This document shows positions 496 to 52,351 of a stretch of 64,000 nucleotides of DNA, piece after piece; the first letter of the stretch is position 1; each line of letters starts with the position of its first letter. The notes below the pieces were generated by a model, which was not told where the DNA came from, ran no database searches, and worked only from the letters and a program-made list of their open reading frames with translations. A program made the position numbers and the translations under genes. The stretch spans positions 50,668-114,667 of the forward strand of contig JBKBRF010000021.1 in NCBI GenBank assembly GCA_046292385.1, given 5' to 3'. Source of the stretch: Armatimonadota bacterium (GTDB lineage Bacteria > Armatimonadota > SYMT01).

Positions 496-597
496 GCCAC
501 CCCTCGCCAGGGGTGGCCACAAGGGGAACCCTTCGGACCTGCCTTCGGCACACCCTCCGGGCTCCGACGGCCGAACACGCTGGGACCGAAGGCAGGT
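496..597. repeat. Intergenic hairpins: GCCACCCCT-CGCC-AGGGGTGGC (496-517) and 12-bp inverted repeat ACCTGCCTTCGG / CCGAAGGCAGGT (537-548 / 586-597)
   Basis: Read directly from the sequence. Confidence 0.7.
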
Positions 598-43179: not shown

Positions 43180-43436
43180 CGGTGCCTCTCGTCTCGGGGC
43201 TCATCTTAGCGGGAGGTCTCGCGAGGGGCAAGGGCGATCGGGTTCCGCCGCGGGTCTCCCGGCAGCGCGAACCCGCGCGGGGCGGCGGCTCGCGCTCCAG
43301 GGTGATACTTCTTTCGCGGGACGGAGTAACGCTCCGCGCGACGCAGGGTGAGACGGCGTCCTTGCCGAACCGCAAGCTGGACTCTCATCCGCGGGCGTGT
43401 TCGCCCGCCGTCCCGGCCGGCTGGACAAACCTGGAT

Positions 43437-46139
43437 ATGCGCAGCTCTACTTCTTCCTCCCCGATCCGCTTCTGCTGGATCTTCTACGCCCTGCTCGCCG
43501 CGTGCTTGCTCCTGCCGCGGCTCGACGCCCTGGCGCAGCCGGTGGGACGGCTCGACGTCGGCGAGCCGCAGCTCTCCACGCCCCTGCTGGTCACCGGGAC
43601 GGAAGGGGTGCTGGCCGTCGAGTTGATCAACTCCGGGACCCGGGAGCTCCGGGGGTTCACGGTCGAGGCGGTGCCGCCGTTCGGACTCCGCCTGGAGCCG
43701 CTTCAGCCGGCGCCCGCGGTGCTGCCGGTCGGGGAGCGCGCGGAGGTATCGTGGCGGGTCTCCGCGGAGCAGCCAGACCTCTTCCCGGTGCTGGTCCGCG
43801 TCCAGGCGGAAGGCGTGGAGCCGGTCGAGCGGGAGGTGCAGGTGGCGGCGGTGCCGCCCGGGCCGGCGCCGGACCTGCGCACGGTGGAGCATCCGGTGGT
43901 GGCGCCGGACGCGGCCGGTAACTTCATCTTCCGCAACCGGCACCTGGTGGCGCTGCTGGTCAAGACCGGGAACCGCTTCGGGCCCATGATCCTCTGGCCG
44001 ACGCGCCGACCCACCGATCCGGAGGCGCTGCCGCTCGCGGTCGCCCCCGCGCTCGCGCGCCTCGCGTGGAAGGAGGGCGACCAGCTCCACAGCGCCTCGT
44101 TCCTGCCGTCCGACGTCAAGCGCCTGGGCGACGACCGCCTGCGCCTCCGCGGCACGGCTGCGCAGGGTAACGTCACGTGGGACCTGGAGATGGAGCTGGA
44201 AATCGGGGAGGAGCCCTGGCTCAAGTGGAGCGCCAGCACGCGGCCCAGCGCTTCCGCCTCGCTCGTCCGCTTCGCGCCGCTGTCGCTGAAGGTTGCCGCC
44301 GAGCCCAGGTCCGAGGTGCTCTTCCCGGGCGTGCTCTACGACGAGGTCGAGCGCATCGACGCCGAGGAGCTTCGGCCGCGCCTGCTGGCGCCGAACCCGC
44401 TGCAGGTAACGGTGCCGCTGATGGCGGTCACTTCCGGCCGGACTACCCTCTCGCTGATGTGGGACCAGGCGCAGAAGTGGGGCGGCACTGGCGCGCCGGC
44501 CGCGCTGCTCGGCACCGCCCCGGTGCGGGACGCGGGCGCCGAGTATCGGATGGAGCTGTTTCTCCCCTCCATTCCGGACTACGTCCGCGAAGACGAGACG
44601 ACCGCCACCCAGACCTACGAAGTGCCGGCCGGCGTGCCGGTCCGGCTCCAGGCGCGCATCGCGGTGCTGCGCGAAGAGGAAGACCCGACTGCCGCGGTAC
44701 GGACGTGGGCGGACGCCTACCTGCACATGGGAGTCCGGAAGTATCCGGTTCCGTTCGAGCGGGTGCGGGAGCTGGCCCGCGTAAGCTACCTGCGCACCCT
44801 GTGGGACCCGCAGGTGCCCGGCTGGCTTCCCGCCGTGGGACCAGAGCCGGTCCGCGCAGAGCCTTCCCCCTCTAACGTGCTGGCACTGCTCATCGACGCG
44901 GGCCTGACGGAGAAGGACGCCGTCTCCGCGGAGCTGCGTCAGCGGGCGGAGGTCGTCCTCGACGCGCTCCAGGCGCAGGGGCCGCTCGATCCGGTGCTGG
45001 CGTACCGGGTCGGCGGCGTCATTCCCACTCTCGACGCCGTTTACGAGGCGGTGCGCCCGCTGATCCGGGAGCAGCTCGCCAGCGGCGCCTGGCCGCTCGA
45101 CGTTCCGGTGGACGACGAGCCGGCCCGGAGTGAGGAGATCGGCCCCATTGCCCGGCGCGCGGTGACGGTCCTCCGTTCCGCGGTGCTGACCGGCGACAGC
45201 GACGCGGCCGGAGCGGGCCGGCGTGCCCTCGAGTACATGGCGGGGCGCTTCCGGGTCCCGCGCGGCGGCCTGCCGGGAGAGGTGCCGCTGCAGGCGGCCG
45301 ATCTCCTCGCCGCCGCCGATGCCGCGGAGGCGTTCCTCCTCGGCTACCAGGTGAGCGGCGAGCGGCGCTACGTGGACGAGGCCCGCTACTGGGCGGACAC
45401 CGGGCTGCCGTTCGTCTACCTCTGGGGCGATCCGGCGCGGCCGGCGCTCAAGCAGGCGGCCCTCCCCTACATGGGAAGCGACGAGGCGATGCAGTGGATC
45501 GGTCTCCGCTACGCGCTGGTGCTGCGCGCGCTGCACGACGTGCGGCCAGACGCCCTCCACGACTACGTCTCCGAAGGCATCCTCTCCAGCGCCATGCACC
45601 AGATGGAGAAGGCCGGCGCCAACGCCGGGCTCTACCCGGAGCGCTGGGACGTGCGCACCAGCGCTCCGGAAGGCGCCTGGCTCAACCCGGAGGGCGTCCT
45701 GGCGCTGATGTACCGCCTCCAGCGTTACAACCCGCAGGTCTCCCACCTGCGGCTGCGGACCGGGGCGGACCGGATGTTCGTCGCCAGCGGCGCCACCATC
45801 CTGGAAGGCATCACTACCGCCCAGCGCCTCCGCCTGAAGCTGCGCTGGATCCGCGGCGAGGACACCTTCACCACCATCACGGGGGTGCCGGAGCGCCCGA
45901 TCCGCATCGAGATCAACGAGTCCCCGCTGCGGCGCTTCGGCCTGCCGATCTCCCGGGAGTTCCTGCCGGAAGTGACGGAAGAGTCGCAGGTCGGCTGGTA
46001 CTACGACGAGCTGCGGCAGCTGCTGATCCTCCGCCTGCGGCACACCAGCCGGGAGGACAACATCGAGGTCCGCTGGCACGACCCGCGGGAGCGGACCGAG
46101 GTAGAACGGATCGACACCCGCGTCCGTCCCCGCCGATAA
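43437..46139 (+). CDS. Large exported hypothetical protein (N-terminal Ig-like domain, C-terminal alpha/alpha-toroid-like region)
   Basis: Signal-like N-terminus; GC3-biased ~900-codon frame; GYQVSGERRYVDEARYWA helix-hairpin pattern. Confidence 0.7.
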   Translation: MRSSTSSSPIRFCWIFYALLAACLLLPRLDALAQPVGRLDVGEPQLSTPLLVTGTEGVLAVELINSGTRELRGFTVEAVPPFGLRLEPLQPAPAVLPVGERAEVSWRVSAEQPDLFPVLVRVQAEGVEPVEREVQVAAVPPGPAPDLRTVEHPVVAPDAAGNFIFRNRHLVALLVKTGNRFGPMILWPTRRPTDPEALPLAVAPALARLAWKEGDQLHSASFLPSDVKRLGDDRLRLRGTAAQGNVTWDLEMELEIGEEPWLKWSASTRPSASASLVRFAPLSLKVAAEPRSEVLFPGVLYDEVERIDAEELRPRLLAPNPLQVTVPLMAVTSGRTTLSLMWDQAQKWGGTGAPAALLGTAPVRDAGAEYRMELFLPSIPDYVREDETTATQTYEVPAGVPVRLQARIAVLREEEDPTAAVRTWADAYLHMGVRKYPVPFERVRELARVSYLRTLWDPQVPGWLPAVGPEPVRAEPSPSNVLALLIDAGLTEKDAVSAELRQRAEVVLDALQAQGPLDPVLAYRVGGVIPTLDAVYEAVRPLIREQLASGAWPLDVPVDDEPARSEEIGPIARRAVTVLRSAVLTGDSDAAGAGRRALEYMAGRFRVPRGGLPGEVPLQAADLLAAADAAEAFLLGYQVSGERRYVDEARYWADTGLPFVYLWGDPARPALKQAALPYMGSDEAMQWIGLRYALVLRALHDVRPDALHDYVSEGILSSAMHQMEKAGANAGLYPERWDVRTSAPEGAWLNPEGVLALMYRLQRYNPQVSHLRLRTGADRMFVASGATILEGITTAQRLRLKLRWIRGEDTFTTITGVPERPIRIEINESPLRRFGLPISREFLPEVTEESQVGWYYDELRQLLILRLRHTSREDNIEVRWHDPRERTEVERIDTRVRPRR

Positions 46140-46379: not shown

Positions 46380-49019
46380 TCAGAACCAGGTCCAGACTTC
46401 GGTGCGGATATAGCGGTAGACGCGCCGGAACGCCACCTCCCGCAGGGGACGCTCGCCGCAGATGATCTTGGCGTGGCCGGTAATGCCGGGACGGAGATCG
46501 CCCTCCGGGTTCTCCACCTGCAGCCGGATTTCGTAGGCGCCGCGGCCGTTCGACTTCACCGGGCGGGGGGAGACGTCGGTCACGTGTCCTTCGAAGAGAC
46601 GGTCCGGGTACGCGCCGACTCGGAGCTGCACCGGCAGGCCCCGCCGGATCTCCCCCATCTCCTTCTCGTCGACCAGTACTTTCGCGGTGAGCGTCTCCAC
46701 CCGGTCGATCCAGGCGAGGGTCTGGCCGCGGTTCAGCTTCAGGCCGCGCTTCTCGTGCAGGCGGGGCGAGCTGATGACGCCGGAGATCGGCGCGGTGACC
46801 TGGGTCTGCCGAATCTTGCGCTCCACTCGCTCGATCTCCGTCACCAGCGGACGCGCCTCCAGCCGCTTCGCCGCCGCTTCCGCCCGCTTCACGTCCGCCG
46901 CCTGCCGCAGCACCCGGCGCGCCTCCAGCATCGCGGAACGGGTGTCGAGCTCGTCCCGGATCGCGTCCAGCCGCTCCGGGCGGGTCTCCTGCGCCACCAC
47001 CCGCTGGCTCTCCAGCGCCGCCTCGTACCCCGCGCGGAGGCGCCGGACCTCCGATTCGGCGTCCTCCCGATCTTCGTGCAGCGTCTTCAGCTTGGCGCGG
47101 AGCTCGCTCTGCAGCGCCGCCTCTTCCCGCTCCAGCGCCTTCAGGTCGGCCGCCAGGGTGTCGAGCCGCTGGCTCTGGAGCGCCCCTTCCCGCACCAGGA
47201 ACGCCGCCCGGCGCACTTCTTTCTGGGCCAGGTCCCGCTGCGCTCGGAGGCGGTCGATCCGCTCCACCACTGCCTGGGCGTCCGGCGGCAGGCGGCCTTC
47301 CGCCGCCGCGCGCTCGTCCCCCCGCAGCCGTTCCGCCACCCGCTCCGCGGAATCGAGAGCGGCCCGCGCCTCCTGCACCTTCCGCTCCGCCTCGGACTGG
47401 CGCGCGGGGAACAGCTCCTGGCGGTCCGACAGCTCCGCCTGCGCGCTGCGGATGTCCCGGAGGTCTTCCAGCACGTCCCGCTCCTTCTCCGCGGCGACCA
47501 GCGGAGCCTCCTGCTCCACCACCCGGCTGGCGGCCTCCACGCTGTCGACCTTCTGCCGGAGCTGCTCCGTCACTTTCTCCAGGTCGTAGCTCTCCAGCAC
47601 CGCCACCACCTCGCCCGCCCGCACCCGGTCGCCCTCCCGCAGGCGGATCTCCTGGACCACGCCTTCTACCGCGCCGCGGATCGGAATCCGCGCCTCCGCC
47701 TCCAGCGTGCAGGGGCTGGCCACCGCGAGGGTCCAGCGCGCGTTCCAGAACCAGATGCCGCCGCCCGCCAGCAGCGCCAGCAGCAGCACCGGCCGCAGGC
47801 GCGGACGCAGCGGCTTCTCCTTCCGCTCCGCCAGCCGGGCGCGCACGCGGCCCGCCATCGTCTTGAGCCAGGAGGAAAGGATCGCCATGGTCAGGATTCC
47901 TAGGACGAAAGCACCCTCGCGGCCGTAGCTGCCGACCAGCCACCGGCCGAGGGAGTAGTAGAGGAAGGTGAGCAGCACGGCCGAGTAGAGCCAGGAGCCG
48001 AAGCCGAACCAGAAGAAGATACGGCGCTCTCGCGCGTCATTGCTCCGCGGGGGCTCCGTGCCGACGAGAATCGAGCCGACCCGTCCCTGAAAGTAGCGGA
48101 TCGCCTTGTCTCGCAGGTTCGGGATGCGGAGCCAGTCGCTCAGCAGATAGTAGCCGTCCAGCTTGATGAACGGATTCAGGTTCATCAGCGCCATGAAGCC
48201 GCAAGTGCCCACCATCACGTGGCAGATCCGCGCCGGCACCGTCTCCGGCTCCAGCAGCTTCCACAGCACGAACGCCAGGGCGCCGAAGACCAGCTGCCAC
48301 GCCAGGCCGGCGCTGCCGATGAGCAGCCGCTCCTTACGGGACGAGAGGGTCCAGGCGCCGCTCACGTCGCAGTAGAAGCACGGAATCCCATACATCACGA
48401 AGAAGCCGACCCCGTGGCTGCGCGCGCCGAAGTAGCGGCACGTGACCCCGTGTCCCAGTTCGTGGAAGATCGAGATCACCGTGAATCCGGTCCAGAGCAG
48501 CACCATCCCTCCGGGCGTGAGCACGGGCCGGGAATGCCGCGCCAGCTCCTCCACGCTAAAGAACGCCCAGTGCCCCACGTAGAGCAGGAAGAGGACGATC
48601 AGCGCGATTCCGGCCGGGTGGTAGGCGGCGCGGGCGAGCGGCTGCAGCGCCTGGAAGAGGCCGTCCGCCGGCACCGGGGGGAGCTGGATGCGGAGCAGGC
48701 GCCGGTAGAACGGTACCGCTACGCGGCGCAGCCCAGGGACGGAGCCTTCGAGCCAGCCGAGCCCGTGGAGGCGCTGCGCGAAGGCGATGACGGTAGCCTG
48801 CGAGAGGCGGACGCCGGGGAACTCCCGCAGCACCGCCCCGTGCACCTCCGCGAGCGGCGTGACGCCGTCCAGCAGAGAGAGGATGAAGCCTTCGACTTCC
48901 CGGATGCGGAAGTACTTGCCAGTGCGGGGATCATGGACGACGGTGAGGCTGCGCCCCTCTTCCGAGACAGGCGTCAGAACCAGATCGTGCCGCCTCTGCG
49001 GGGTGCTGGAAGCGTCCAT
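46380..49019 (-). CDS. PqqD/RRE-like + M50 (site-2) Zn metalloprotease + HlyD membrane-fusion protein
   Basis: N-terminal VVHDPRTGKYFRI...LLDG...L..LGWL; FHELGH; NLNPFIKLDGY; lipoyl halves, long coiled coil and LRPGITGHAKI beta-barrel. Confidence 0.9.
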   Translation of the reverse strand: MDASSTPQRRHDLVLTPVSEEGRSLTVVHDPRTGKYFRIREVEGFILSLLDGVTPLAEVHGAVLREFPGVRLSQATVIAFAQRLHGLGWLEGSVPGLRRVAVPFYRRLLRIQLPPVPADGLFQALQPLARAAYHPAGIALIVLFLLYVGHWAFFSVEELARHSRPVLTPGGMVLLWTGFTVISIFHELGHGVTCRYFGARSHGVGFFVMYGIPCFYCDVSGAWTLSSRKERLLIGSAGLAWQLVFGALAFVLWKLLEPETVPARICHVMVGTCGFMALMNLNPFIKLDGYYLLSDWLRIPNLRDKAIRYFQGRVGSILVGTEPPRSNDARERRIFFWFGFGSWLYSAVLLTFLYYSLGRWLVGSYGREGAFVLGILTMAILSSWLKTMAGRVRARLAERKEKPLRPRLRPVLLLALLAGGGIWFWNARWTLAVASPCTLEAEARIPIRGAVEGVVQEIRLREGDRVRAGEVVAVLESYDLEKVTEQLRQKVDSVEAASRVVEQEAPLVAAEKERDVLEDLRDIRSAQAELSDRQELFPARQSEAERKVQEARAALDSAERVAERLRGDERAAAEGRLPPDAQAVVERIDRLRAQRDLAQKEVRRAAFLVREGALQSQRLDTLAADLKALEREEAALQSELRAKLKTLHEDREDAESEVRRLRAGYEAALESQRVVAQETRPERLDAIRDELDTRSAMLEARRVLRQAADVKRAEAAAKRLEARPLVTEIERVERKIRQTQVTAPISGVISSPRLHEKRGLKLNRGQTLAWIDRVETLTAKVLVDEKEMGEIRRGLPVQLRVGAYPDRLFEGHVTDVSPRPVKSNGRGAYEIRLQVENPEGDLRPGITGHAKIICGERPLREVAFRRVYRYIRTEVWTWF

Positions 49020-49387
49020 GCGGTGCCGGAGCCGAAAAAATCGGCGCGGCGGGGGATTGCGCCCCGGTCAGGGCCGCGCTAAGAGGAATATTGGCTGGTG
49101 CCAATCCTCCGGCACAGCGCGCAGGGCGGTTAATTCGGCGCCCCGTGTGCCGGGCGCCTAATCTTTGGGCCGAACAGCTTCGAGAAAAAAACTTCGCTCG
49201 GAGCGAAAATAACCCTAAAGAGGCCTGGAAGCACCGCCAATACTGATTGCACAGGCAGAGATAACCCGGTGATTTGCCCAGGAAGGGCGGCAACCCTTCC
49301 CCGGCGACCAGTTCTTTCTCTACCGAAAACGACGTGGGTAGCTCGGTGCCCTGGAGCCTGCGACAACAGGCAAGAGGGCGTGGTTCG

Positions 49388-49411
49388 TCAGTCGTCCCAG
49401 ATTACGTGCAT
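49388..49411 (-). CDS. 7-aa micro-ORF MHVIWDD
   Basis: GAGGA-ACGAAA-ATG CAC GTA ATC TGG GAC GAC TGA; in-frame stop just upstream; shares IW[ED]D with the neighbouring peptide. Confidence 0.5.
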   Translation of the reverse strand: MHVIWDD

Positions 49412-49471
49412 TTTCGTTCCTCGAAATCAACCGAGTGGAAGGCTGAAGTAGATCCCTCTGGAGAGGGTCGA

Positions 49472-49588
49472 CTACGGCCCGGGAACCACGGTCGCCGGCG
49501 GGGCATCTTCCCAGATGGCGTTCGGGGCCGTGCGGTCCTCCAGCTCTTCGATCTCGAGGGTCAGTTCGTCAAGGTGCAGTTCTGCCAT
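49472..49588 (-). CDS. 38-aa precursor-like peptide MAELHLDELTLEIEELEDRTAPNAIWEDAPPATVVPGP
   Basis: GGAG RBS; host-like codons; acidic leader ending EELEDRTAP; hairpin CCCTC-TCCA-GAGGG just after the TAG; below the ORF-track size cutoff. Confidence 0.8.
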   Translation of the reverse strand: MAELHLDELTLEIEELEDRTAPNAIWEDAPPATVVPGP

Positions 49589-49857
49589 GGGGTAGCTCCA
49601 TTCTTCGGAAAAGTGGATGCTCCCAGGCCTCTAGTGGTTTTCCTCTTACACCAGCGATAGTCGGCAAACTAGCGCTCGCTCACTAAAGGATTTCGGCTTA
49701 TTTTTGCCGGAGTCCTTTTCGCGCGCCACTGTTTTTTGTTGCGAGTTTGCTGAGACGCAAAAAACCGGTTTGGCCGCCTGCCTGGATTCGACCGTTTTGC
49801 GCTCCGCTGCCGTGATTTCTCCCTCCGCCCCATGTTCGTCCGTTTGGTGTAGTGGTC

Positions 49858-49969: not shown

Positions 49970-52351
49970 ATGCAATTCGAGCAACTCCCGCGGCGCCTGC
50001 AAGCGCTGATCCTGGTAAAGGCGGTGGCGGCGATTGGCGTCACCCACTGGCTCTGGAGCATCTCTAGCTTCGGGGAGTGGCGCCTGCTCGGGTTCCTGAC
50101 GCTGTGCGGGGCGATCGCCGGCGCATGTAAGGTCGATACGCAGGTCAAGGCGGGCCGGGGAAGCATCACCCTCGGCTTTATGGTGACCTATTTCACCTTT
50201 CTGCTGCTGGGGCCGGAGGCCACGATCCCGATCGGCCTCGCCACCGGAATCGCGGGGCGGGTGGTGCAGTACACCGACGGCCGTCCGCACGTGGTCTGGG
50301 CGCGCGCGGTCTCCTACCACATCCTCTACAACTGCTCCAACCTGGTGCTGGCGATCGCCGCCATGGGGCTGGTCTACCCGCTGCTGGGCGGCCGCTACGG
50401 GGAGGTGGAGCTGACGCAGGCGGCGGTTCCCTCTTTCGCCAGCGCGCTCACCTACTACGCGGTCAACATCGGTGGGGTGGCGCTGGCGATCGCGTGGAGC
50501 CAGAACCGATCGGCGGTAGAGGTCTTCCGCAAGAACTTCTCCTGGGCGCTCCCCGGATTCCTGGCTAGCGCCTCCCTCTCGGTCGCGGTGCTCTGGCTCT
50601 ACGGGCACATCCACAGCGCGCTCATCTGCACGCTCGTGGTGCCGATGGCCTACGTGGTGCACCGCAACTTCCGGATGAGCCGGGACCAGCTCCGGGCGGA
50701 GCGCGACCACATGGCCGAGGTGAACCGCCTCAACGAGGCGATCATCTCCAGCCTGGCGATGGCGGTCGACGCCAAAGACCGGCTCACGCGCGGGCACGTC
50801 GACCGCGTGCGCACCTACGCCACGCGCCTGGGCGAGGCGTTGGGAATCTCCGCGGACGAGCTGCAGGCGCTGCGCATCGCCGCGATCCTCCACGACATCG
50901 GCAAGATCGGGATTCCGGAGCGGATTCTCTGCAAAGAGGGCAAGCTCACCGGCGACGAGTTCGAGCTGATGAAGAAGCACGTGGAGATCGGCGCGAACAT
51001 TCTGGAGCAGGTGCAGTTCCCCTGGCCGGTGGTCCCGATCGTGCTGGGGCACCACGAGCGCTGGGACGGGCTGGGCTACCCTCACGGCTGGCGCGGCGAG
51101 GAGATCCCGATCGGCGCCCGCATCTTGATGGTGGTCGACGTCTTCGACGCCCTGACCTCGGAGCGGCCGTACCGGCGCGCCATGGAGCACGCAGAGGCGC
51201 TGGCGGTGCTGGTCTCCAACCGCGGCTCTCAATTCGATCCGGTCGTGGTGGACCGCTTCGTCGAGCTGCTCCCCAGCGTGGCCGAGGAGATCCAGGCCCT
51301 GCGCGAGGACCAGGCGGACGCGGTGCATCTGCTGGCGCCGCCGGTCCCGGCCGCGGTCGCCGCGAGCGCCGTCTTTACCGACCCGGAGGCGGAGCTGCTG
51401 GTGGAGCTCACGCGGCGCGCGCTCAGCGCGGACGGCCTTCCGGCAATCAGCTCTCTGCTGACGGAAACGGTAACCTGCCTGCTCCCCTTCTCCACCTTCG
51501 CGGTCTTCCTGCGCTCCCCGGACGGTCGCCACGTGAGGGCCGTCACGAGTGCCGGGCTGTGGAGCTCCCTGCTGGACGGTATCGAGATCCGGATGGGCGA
51601 AGGGGTGAGCGGCTACGTGACCCAGACCCGTCAGGCGGTGATGAATGGCTCCGCCAGTCTCGACCTCGCCCGCCGGGTGCGCCCCGGCGAAAACCTGGAG
51701 TTGAACTCCACCCTCTGCGTCCCGCTCATCGCGGAGGGCGAGGCGGTGGGCGCACTCACCGTCTACCACACCGGCTACAACTTCTACCAGGCGCAGCACC
51801 TGCAGCGCCTGGAGCGGATCGCCCGGTGCGCCGCCGGCGCGCTGGAGAAGAGTCCCCGCGCCTTGCTGGCGGAACGGGAGCTGGACCACTACACTGCCCC
51901 GCCGATGCTACGGGAAGCGGTGCTGCGCCACCTGGACGAGCGGCTCCACGCCGCCGCACCGAGCCAATCCGCGGTCACCCTGGCGCTGGTCCGCCTGGAG
52001 TGTACCGCCAACACCCCCGCCCTGGAGATGGCGCGCCACGCGCGGGAGCTGACGCGCCTGCTGCGGCTCACCGTGCGCGATGCCGACTTCCTGACCCGGT
52101 ACTCCAGCACCGAGTTCGCGCTGGTGCTTCCGGGCTGCGGCGAGCGGGAGAGCGCCCAGATCGAGGAGCGACTTCGCTCCCGTCTCTCTCGGCCGGACAC
52201 CGAATCGGAAGCGCTCCCGGTCCCGATCAGCTTCGGCTGGGCCCTTTTTCCGGAAGACGGTCCGGATGCCGCCGCCCTGCTCCACATCGCCCAATCCCGC
52301 CTGGAAGATCAGAGCCGCCAGCAGGAAGCGCTCCGCCGCCTGATCGGGTAA
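49970..52351 (+). CDS. Membrane sensor HD-GYP phosphodiesterase with GAF and degenerate GGDEF domains
   Basis: About 7 N-terminal TMs; LHDIGK, HHERWDGLGYP and RPYR; GAF (GEGVSGYV...LCVPL...GALTVY); RYSSTEF in place of RYGGDEF. Confidence 0.92.
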   Translation: MQFEQLPRRLQALILVKAVAAIGVTHWLWSISSFGEWRLLGFLTLCGAIAGACKVDTQVKAGRGSITLGFMVTYFTFLLLGPEATIPIGLATGIAGRVVQYTDGRPHVVWARAVSYHILYNCSNLVLAIAAMGLVYPLLGGRYGEVELTQAAVPSFASALTYYAVNIGGVALAIAWSQNRSAVEVFRKNFSWALPGFLASASLSVAVLWLYGHIHSALICTLVVPMAYVVHRNFRMSRDQLRAERDHMAEVNRLNEAIISSLAMAVDAKDRLTRGHVDRVRTYATRLGEALGISADELQALRIAAILHDIGKIGIPERILCKEGKLTGDEFELMKKHVEIGANILEQVQFPWPVVPIVLGHHERWDGLGYPHGWRGEEIPIGARILMVVDVFDALTSERPYRRAMEHAEALAVLVSNRGSQFDPVVVDRFVELLPSVAEEIQALREDQADAVHLLAPPVPAAVAASAVFTDPEAELLVELTRRALSADGLPAISSLLTETVTCLLPFSTFAVFLRSPDGRHVRAVTSAGLWSSLLDGIEIRMGEGVSGYVTQTRQAVMNGSASLDLARRVRPGENLELNSTLCVPLIAEGEAVGALTVYHTGYNFYQAQHLQRLERIARCAAGALEKSPRALLAERELDHYTAPPMLREAVLRHLDERLHAAAPSQSAVTLALVRLECTANTPALEMARHARELTRLLRLTVRDADFLTRYSSTEFALVLPGCGERESAQIEERLRSRLSRPDTESEALPVPISFGWALFPEDGPDAAALLHIAQSRLEDQSRQQEALRRLIG

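Follow-up and report, generated by a model that had tools for sequence, protein, structure and literature searches.

We identified a seven-codon open reading frame (mini-ORF; ATG CAC GTA ATC TGG GAC GAC TGA) whose product, MHVIWDD, resembles the predicted core of the small leader-bearing precursor peptide encoded just upstream of it. The locus lies within a 64,000-nt stretch of the genome of an Armatimonadota bacterium (GCA_046292385.1, contig JBKBRF010000021.1, 50,668–114,667), which is referred to as the window in the following. Its conservation in the closest relative known makes a genuine, if exceptionally small, gene more probable than debris. Our favored reading, to which we assign a probability of roughly 0.45, is that it represents a leaderless paralogue of the precursor core that is kept by selection and whose product would mimic the mature peptide without depending on a leader. 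The features of the locus and of its relatives are listed in Table 1.

Table 1 Features of the precursor locus in the window and predicted cores and structures in related loci. Positions refer to the window unless another locus is named.
Feature	Position	Strand	Remarks
38-aa leader-bearing precursor MAELHLDELTLEIEELEDRTAPNAIWEDAPPATVVPGP	49472..49588	-	leader ...LEIEELEDRTAP, core NAIWEDAPPATVVPGP
7-codon mini-ORF (MHVIWDD, stop)	49388..49411	-	sequence reading; counterpart in L040
Shine-Dalgarno-like GAGGA	49418..49422	-	6-nt spacer acgaaa (49417-49412) to the mini-ORF ATG
879-aa PqqD + M50 + HlyD-type fusion	46380..49019	-	Pfam, NCBIfam
Divergent membrane HD-GYP/GAF/GGDEF protein	49970..52351	+	kept beside the precursor in G001 and G006
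Upstream hairpin, loop TTGCCG	49653..49676	-	loop begins 79 nt before the precursor ATG
Hairpin H1, GCCTG-TTGTCG-CAGGC	49356..49371	-	stem begins 16 nt past the mini-ORF stop
Hairpin H2, loop TTGCCG, 11-pair stem	49276..49305	-	
Terminator-like hairpin + seven T	49185..49208	-	consensus scan only
Spacer islands AGTAT.GG / (C)TCTTTAG	window ~49213-49247; L040 ~570-610; L030 ~2840-2870	- (window)	conserved
UUGCCG hairpins in L030	2372-2403, 2658-2683, 2790-2815		
UUGCCG hairpins in L040	~210-237, 440-455, 519-542		
G006 core after A-P/V-P			AFIWYDEDTENPVPPTPPTNGG
G001 core after A-P/V-P			AFIWLPPDEGVGP
G007 core after A-P/V-P			NMFIGDD (...TAP-NMFIGDD, stop)
L040 core after A-P/V-P			QIIIEPED (...IAP-QIIIEPED, stop)
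L042 core after A-P/V-P			SLLVGED (...IAP-SLLVGED, stop)

The position of the mini-ORF, its GAGGA with the 6-nt spacing, the reading as MHVIWDD and the 60-nt gap after the 38-mer, all reported in an initial annotation of this DNA, were reproduced from the sequence. The 60 nt separate the precursor stop codon (TAG, 49474–49472) from the mini-ORF ATG, with all elements on the minus strand, and the gene for the large fusion protein starts 368 nt past the mini-ORF stop. Only 4.0% of the ATG triplets in the genome have a 5-mer Shine-Dalgarno motif in front of them, but the mini-ORFs of the window and of the closest relative both do. The coded motif is also more than a chance occurrence. In the six reading frames of the 7.04-Mb genome (14,085,906 codon positions), IW[ED]D is matched 12 times, and two of these 12 matches are found here, 114 nt apart. 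When IW[DE][DE] is required to be followed by a stop codon, the mini-ORF itself is the single match in 14.09 million codon positions of this genome, with a chance expectation of less than 3e-5 per 400-nt spacer. The pattern M..h.[DE][DE]-stop matches three times across the whole genome. A looser scan pattern, for which 0.2 matches were expected in about 7,500 positions, returned four: both mini-ORFs and, in addition, the ends of two genuine precursors.

The likeness between the mini-ORF and the precursor core resides at the peptide level only, because DNA similarity is just local and a DNA profile of the precursor genes is silent in this region. At a shift of 114 nt, identity between precursor and mini-ORF is local (15/24), and another shift gives 16/24. 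The initial annotation had described the two motifs as using different codons. This is the case for GAA/GAC, GAT/GAC, GCC/GTA and AAC/CAC, but ATC and TGG are identical, and 13 of 16 nucleotides agree. The nhmmer profiles, built from six precursor genes with and without the window's own and run against the whole genome, returned 489 and 494 matches at E<=100, none of them in the mini-ORF region. Only the precursor itself was significant; the best other match, on contig C34, was discarded because it falls within a longer ORF of no relation. A tandem DNA duplication was likewise rejected, the identity at the 114-nt shift being 29% overall, 15/24 at best and unexceptional. We also rejected stop read-through (the open frame past the stop extends over 86 codons in the window vs 23 in the relative, and the extensions are mutually dissimilar), recoding by selenocysteine or pyrrolysine (the window has TGA where the relative has TAG) and an antisense gene (an antisense ORF is not conserved, the frame ending right at the mini-ORF in the relative).

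The precursor belongs to a family of small leader-bearing peptides. A leader-type small ORF (...L-x-L-E-[IV]-E-E-L-[ED]-[ED]-R-[TIA]-[AV]-P) is located 330–460 nt upstream of the genes for the five closest fusion homologues, and the window's leader reads E-L-E-D-R-T-A-P at -8 to -1. Because E(-8), L(-7) and P(-1) match the leader of the daptide precursor MpaA, and because the best NCBIfam match of the fusion protein is a daptide protease family, we naturally infer that the leader would be cut after A-P. In the daptide system, the exchanges E(-8)A, L(-7)A and P(-1)A reduced or abolished MpaB/MpaC processing of MpaA (bioRxiv 10.1101/2023.03.08.531785). A cut after A-P would release shortest mature products of 6–8 residues, with a polar residue first, three or four hydrophobic residues next and acidic residues at the end. 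What the predicted cores have in common is a stretch of hydrophobic residues with acidic ones behind it. This arrangement of polar first residue, three to four hydrophobic residues, acidic end and stop is also found in MHVIWDD and in its counterpart MFLIWDE from the closest relative, which compare with the short cores NMFIGDD, SLLVGED, QIIIEPED and QLIWGD. Moreover, MHVIWDD aligns without gaps to the G007 core NMFIGDD, placing the initiator Met at core position 1. An in-frame leader ending in R-[TI/AV]-[AV]-P is absent upstream of the mini-ORF, which is preceded by a stop codon and FRGTK. As regards the proposal that IW[ED]D is the active motif, I-W is present in four of seven family precursors (window, G006, G001 and one soil RNA-library contig) and in both mini-ORFs, but three cores carry FIGDD, LVGED and IIEPED, so that the motif covers a part of the family.

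A protein search with the precursor, extended by four in-frame codons, matched the window's own 38-mer only, and small precursors of this kind are therefore mostly uncalled in public data. Among distant RRE-M50 loci (L044, L045, L047–L050 and L053), the leader L.LE.LE[EQ]RIAP is kept and the cores are long and unrelated, consisting of Gly/Ser/Lys-rich repeats, Gly-rich GYEGQPGNQG repeats or a Cys-rich CGCDCCGCG stretch. Judged by their motif, the leaders of these distant loci form a broad, unnamed leader family. Across the family and these distant loci, the leader is therefore conserved and the core hypervariable. In G001, a stretch reading ...GEERHGIWE before a stop (...GLRGEERHGIWE + stop; L031 ~2430–2465, ~110 nt upstream of the precursor) was considered and dismissed; it lacks an ATG and has no parallel elsewhere, and is probably due to chance although it echoes the pair of VDFEERK and IWDD in the window.

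The large protein encoded downstream combines a PqqD-type leader-binding domain (residues 27–90), an M50 metalloprotease with HELGH and a HlyD-type periplasmic adaptor (~440–860). Its best NCBIfam match, daptide_HExxH, scores 197.8 bits, which is under the cut-off of 300 bits. The full-length fusion is rare, being present in 3/40 relatives and in 4/401 genomes of the phylum that were searched, the window's own genome being counted, and fusion loci were obtained from the genome collection (10) and from the metagenome collection (22). The divergent HD-GYP/GAF/GGDEF neighbor is 41% identical in G001 (L031 3–2207, minus strand) and 44% in G006 (L030 260–2122, minus strand) and is a candidate c-di-GMP-linked sensor or effector. 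Near the locus, no tailoring enzyme, ABC exporter/transporter, importer or peptide receptor is encoded, and the other neighbors are unrelated housekeeping genes. A convergent ORF of 985 aa (43182–46139, plus strand) has a coding-type GC3 of 0.91 and an N-terminal hydrophobic stretch, a putative signal peptide; it has no match in Pfam or NCBIfam.

The daptide systems (precursor MpaA; MpaP, in which a leader-binding RRE domain is joined to an intramembrane site-2/M50 protease) and the locus described here both combine a PqqD/RRE domain at the N-terminus with an M50 HExxH protease in one protein, and the leaders share E(-8), L(-7) and P(-1) (bioRxiv 10.1101/2023.03.08.531785). However, the score of the fusion (197.8 vs 300 bits), the lack of DapB/C/D/M-type tailoring genes nearby and the cores, which end in P, D or G and not in Thr, place the locus outside the daptides; in addition, the HlyD-type adaptor is fused to the protease here, and a leaderless mini-ORF does not appear in the parts of that preprint considered (bioRxiv 10.1101/2023.03.08.531785).

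Next, the mini-ORF was compared across the related loci. The closest relative found, the metagenome contig L040, encodes a fusion protein 64% identical over residues 1–384 and carries a mini-ORF at 398–421 (ATG TTC CTC ATC TGG GAT GAG TAG, MFLIWDE), which begins 7 nt past the precursor TAG and has AGGAG 4 nt upstream of its ATG. The two mini-ORFs have the ATG, the length of seven codons, I-W-D, an acidic last residue and the immediate stop in common. Their differences (H/F, V/L, the synonymous GAC/GAT, D/E and TGA/TAG) are synonymous or conservative, and the longest identical run between them is the 8-mer ATCTGGGA. The spacers surrounding them are unalignable in their upstream part and alignable in islands only in their downstream part. 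Because the L040 core QIIIEPED lacks Trp, the L040 mini-ORF is no local echo of its own precursor. Start, stop and length are kept with conservative changes, as in a conserved small ORF, in this one relative. A comparison of the intergenic region in relatives had been proposed; it recovered the seven-codon ORF and AGGAG in L040 but no such ORF in the spacers of G006, G001, G007 and L042, whose fusion proteins are 45–58% identical. The mini-ORF is thus, as judged from two independent sequences, a trait of one sub-branch. Closer relatives were absent from the 401 phylum genomes and from the genome collection, and L040 is the sole usable metagenome locus; L041, with a 59% identical fusion, comes without upstream DNA and hence could not be used. 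Altogether, we conclude that the mini-ORF appears to be under selection, most simply as a coding sequence.

The mini-ORF and GAGGA are unchanged in all four strain-level contigs that cover them (four studies, 96–100% identity); with about 1.6 substitutions expected in the mini-ORF and its ribosome-binding site and 0 seen, this comparison has no power. The 38-mer differs at six positions among strains; five of these substitutions are silent and affect third codon positions, and the remaining one is A29G. This mostly synonymous pattern supports the coding status of the precursor. The run X4 carries a variant (49416 G>A, plus strand) that leaves the mini-ORF intact and yields an extra in-frame ATG two codons upstream of it. 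Contigs from RNA libraries span 49224–49410 and 49432–49637; they are unstranded, leave precursor and mini-ORF unbridged and may reflect DNA carry-over, and the X5 contig ends at 49410. Another contig of the soil RNA library X5, aligned on window 49523–49558, encodes a further family precursor, ...TAP-QLIWGD followed by a stop, which is read from a loose contig end; an ATG is found 6 nt past its stop.

In the favored reading, the PqqD-type domain of the 879-aa protein would bind the conserved leader (...E-L-E-D-R-T-A-P), the M50 protease would cleave the precursor past A-P and the HlyD-type domain would pass the short hydrophobic, acidic peptide on to an exporter. Translation of the mini-ORF from its own ribosome-binding site and ATG would start where the core does and stop right past the acidic pair, so that translation alone would yield a heptapeptide similar in size and shape to the shortest mature products. 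This heptapeptide (computed pI about 4.1–4.5, monoisotopic mass 914.3956 Da) would need neither leader binding nor M50 cleavage. It might leave the cell by direct export or act within the producer, feeding back on a receptor or on the protease/exporter. The initiator Met is generally kept when His or Phe comes next, and it should therefore be retained in both products, which have His or Phe at position 2. The suggestion of a leaderless ORF, already made in the initial annotation, is strengthened by MFLIWDE and its own AGGAG in L040. The mini-ORF may descend from a core by duplication, but it is probably not decaying.

The locus was also compared with other known peptide systems. In streptococcal SHP/XIP signaling, maturation by Eep (an M50 protease) and export by PptAB lead to products of ~6–8 residues that are hydrophobic with acidic residues. 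Leaderless bacteriocins, on the other hand, are peptides of ~30–50 residues that are cationic, active as translated, keep their Met and come with dedicated transporters and immunity genes. The mini-ORF product shares the lack of a leader with the latter but, having seven residues and an acidic pI, falls outside this class. The likeness to SHP/XIP lies in the small precursors, the maturation by an M50-family protease and the short hydrophobic products (PMC7564271, PMC5167397). In contrast to SHP/XIP, which occurs in Bacillota, the present genome is of Armatimonadota type, the leader would be recognized by an RRE and no Rgg/RRNPP receptor or oligopeptide permease adjoins the locus; moreover, the streptococcal signal is, as far as is known, always cut from a precursor and never encoded ready-made. 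By analogy, the locus would work like daptide leader removal and, in outline, like Eep/PptAB maturation, and it is a member of neither.

Neither the fusion nor a leader-dependent precursor accompanied by a leaderless copy is described in the literature searched, and to our knowledge this would be the only peptide system with a leader-dependent product that is also encoded without a leader. The precursor and the RRE-M50-HlyD fusion constitute an uncharacterised two-gene system, in which the conserved leader and hypervariable core suggest untailored peptides for signaling or competition. If the heptapeptide is made and active, few bacterial peptides that act in trans and have a gene of their own would be smaller. 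Some points speak against the favored reading. Heptapeptides have short lifetimes when free in the cell, and the bacterial ORFs of ten codons or fewer that are known to function do so almost exclusively in cis. In addition, no receptor, importer or ABC exporter is encoded nearby, and predicted folds pair the start region of the mini-ORF in both loci, though in different ways.

A cis-acting role is the first alternative to be weighed, and we regard it as somewhat unlikely. Ribosomes translating the mini-ORF, or pausing at its end, would abut hairpin H1 and alter folding, Rho access or stability, thereby setting the expression of the M50-HlyD gene; the peptide would matter inside the ribosome only, and its likeness to the core would be a trace of a duplication origin. 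The geometry of the locus fits such a role better than a trans-acting one, since the distance between mini-ORF stop and H1 is nearly constant (16 nt in the window vs 18 nt in L040, where H1 reads TCCCG-TTGCCG-CGGGA), whereas the distance to the precursor is not (60 vs 7 nt). Furthermore, extended lower stems begin 8–10 nt past the stop, both stops stand in a stop-C context following acidic residues, and the terminator-like hairpin with its seven T follows further on in the window. On the other side, G006 has H1 and H2 without any such ORF, and neither hairpin has a U tract. No alternative pairing common to both loci ties the ORF to a terminator or to the downstream ribosome-binding site. A joint fold of the mini-ORF with the downstream RNA was rejected, the predicted pairings differing between the loci with Z-scores of -0.96 to -3.47, of which the extended H1 of L040 gives the strongest. 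If the mini-ORF were a cis-acting leader, it would also be a coincidence that its product fits the family, has precisely the length of a core and ends in acidic residues.

Very short regulatory ORFs are nevertheless well established. E. coli toiL has 8 codons, and the cat and cmlA leader peptides are very short regulatory ORFs as well. The upstream ORF toiL controls topAI (PMC12121999). The mini-ORF resembles these elements in its length (seven codons vs ~5–9), its own ribosome-binding site and the hairpin just downstream of the stop in both loci. It departs from them in that the next gene lies 368 nt away, no alternative structure is shared and the peptide copies the product of its neighbor. 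The window (49020–49387) and L040 (422–789) both have 368 nt between the mini-ORF stop and the fusion gene, although aligning the two spacers takes several indels; this equality may be a coincidence.

The initial annotation had also considered a frameshifted second precursor copy, based on the reading VDFEERK in another frame, and this reading was reproduced (...HSVDFEERKCT followed by a stop). Accordingly, the mini-ORF might be a non-functional remnant of such a copy, either frameshifted or orphaned by a new leader-core cassette. Its product does resemble a family core, one added A in the A4 run at 49414–49411 would join ...VDFEERK to MHVIWDD, and the mini-ORF was not found in 4/6 loci. However, L040 keeps the start, the stop, the length and I-W-D-[DE] even though the spacer and the hairpin stems have diverged, and it has no space for a second leader because its mini-ORF begins 7 nt past the precursor stop. 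The X4 variant turns an Arg codon of the VDFEERK frame into TGA, the precursor DNA profile has no match here at E<=100, and the "EE" of VDFEERK is equally explained by GAGGA, which encodes EE and serves just as well as a ribosome-binding site. These observations speak against the frameshift, and we consider a remnant of either kind improbable.

That the nucleotides matter, with ATCTGGGA as a protein- or RNA-binding site, or that the resemblance is mere coincidence, is very improbable: this 8-mer is the longest identical run and just two independent sequences are at hand, but ATC and TGG are the preferred or sole codons for I and W, a binding site needs no ATG three codons before, no stop two codons after and no Shine-Dalgarno motif in both loci, and the chance expectation is below 1e-4.

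Besides the leaderless paralogue as such, a wider proposal concerns the whole unit. The same pharmacophore might be encoded twice, once in the leader-bearing precursor and once as a cytoplasmic heptapeptide that serves the producer as a private intracellular agonist or antagonist of its own signal, for self-priming, self-immunity or the control of cheaters, with the unit framed by three UUGCCG hairpins as sites for an RNA-binding regulator; taken together, this is unlikely. The hairpins themselves are a consistent feature of the locus. Every TTG[CT]CG in the region forms a hairpin loop (3/3 each in the window, G006 and L040), and each stem is unlike all others, with the stems being fully diverged between the window and L040. 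The upstream loop lies 79 nt before the precursor ATG in the window, 80 nt in G006 and in L040, and 81 nt in G001, where it reads TTGCAG; two further hairpins of the UUGCCG type are found 3' of the precursor and, where present, of the mini-ORF. All 30 of 30 cells of these stems are paired, which is circular because stem pairing was the criterion for picking the hairpins; this circularity does not affect the clustering statistics. Genome-wide, 69/8,562 UUGYCG occurrences carry a stem of at least 5 pairs, which equals the rate of control loops, and the only cluster of such hairpins in the 7-Mb genome is this locus (two neighbor pairs vs 0.65 expected). We therefore rejected a genome-wide repeat. 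In related loci, six UUGYCG hairpins were counted vs 1.2 expected, and five of the six precede the fusion gene of L030 or L040. Rfam gave no family match for the locus, the sole row having an E value of 0.81. The constant, oriented UUGCCG loop with free stems points to a putative RNA-level site for a protein or another RNA, and the hairpins are a candidate new RNA motif.

Finally, the spacer downstream of the mini-ORF contains further elements. The terminator-like hairpin is positioned between the precursor unit and the M50-HlyD gene, and RNA-library contigs from X5 end at ~49224; L040 has no counterpart to the T run of the window. When the spacers of six loci were compared by blastn and MAFFT, no general alignment was obtained, and islands were restricted to the window vs L040 or G006. 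Two of these conserved islands follow hairpin H2, namely AGTAT.GG and, ~16–20 nt on, (C)TCTTTAG, which is CTCCTTA in G006. The second resembles the core of the boxA antitermination element, and the pair could constitute an internal promoter for the M50-HlyD gene.
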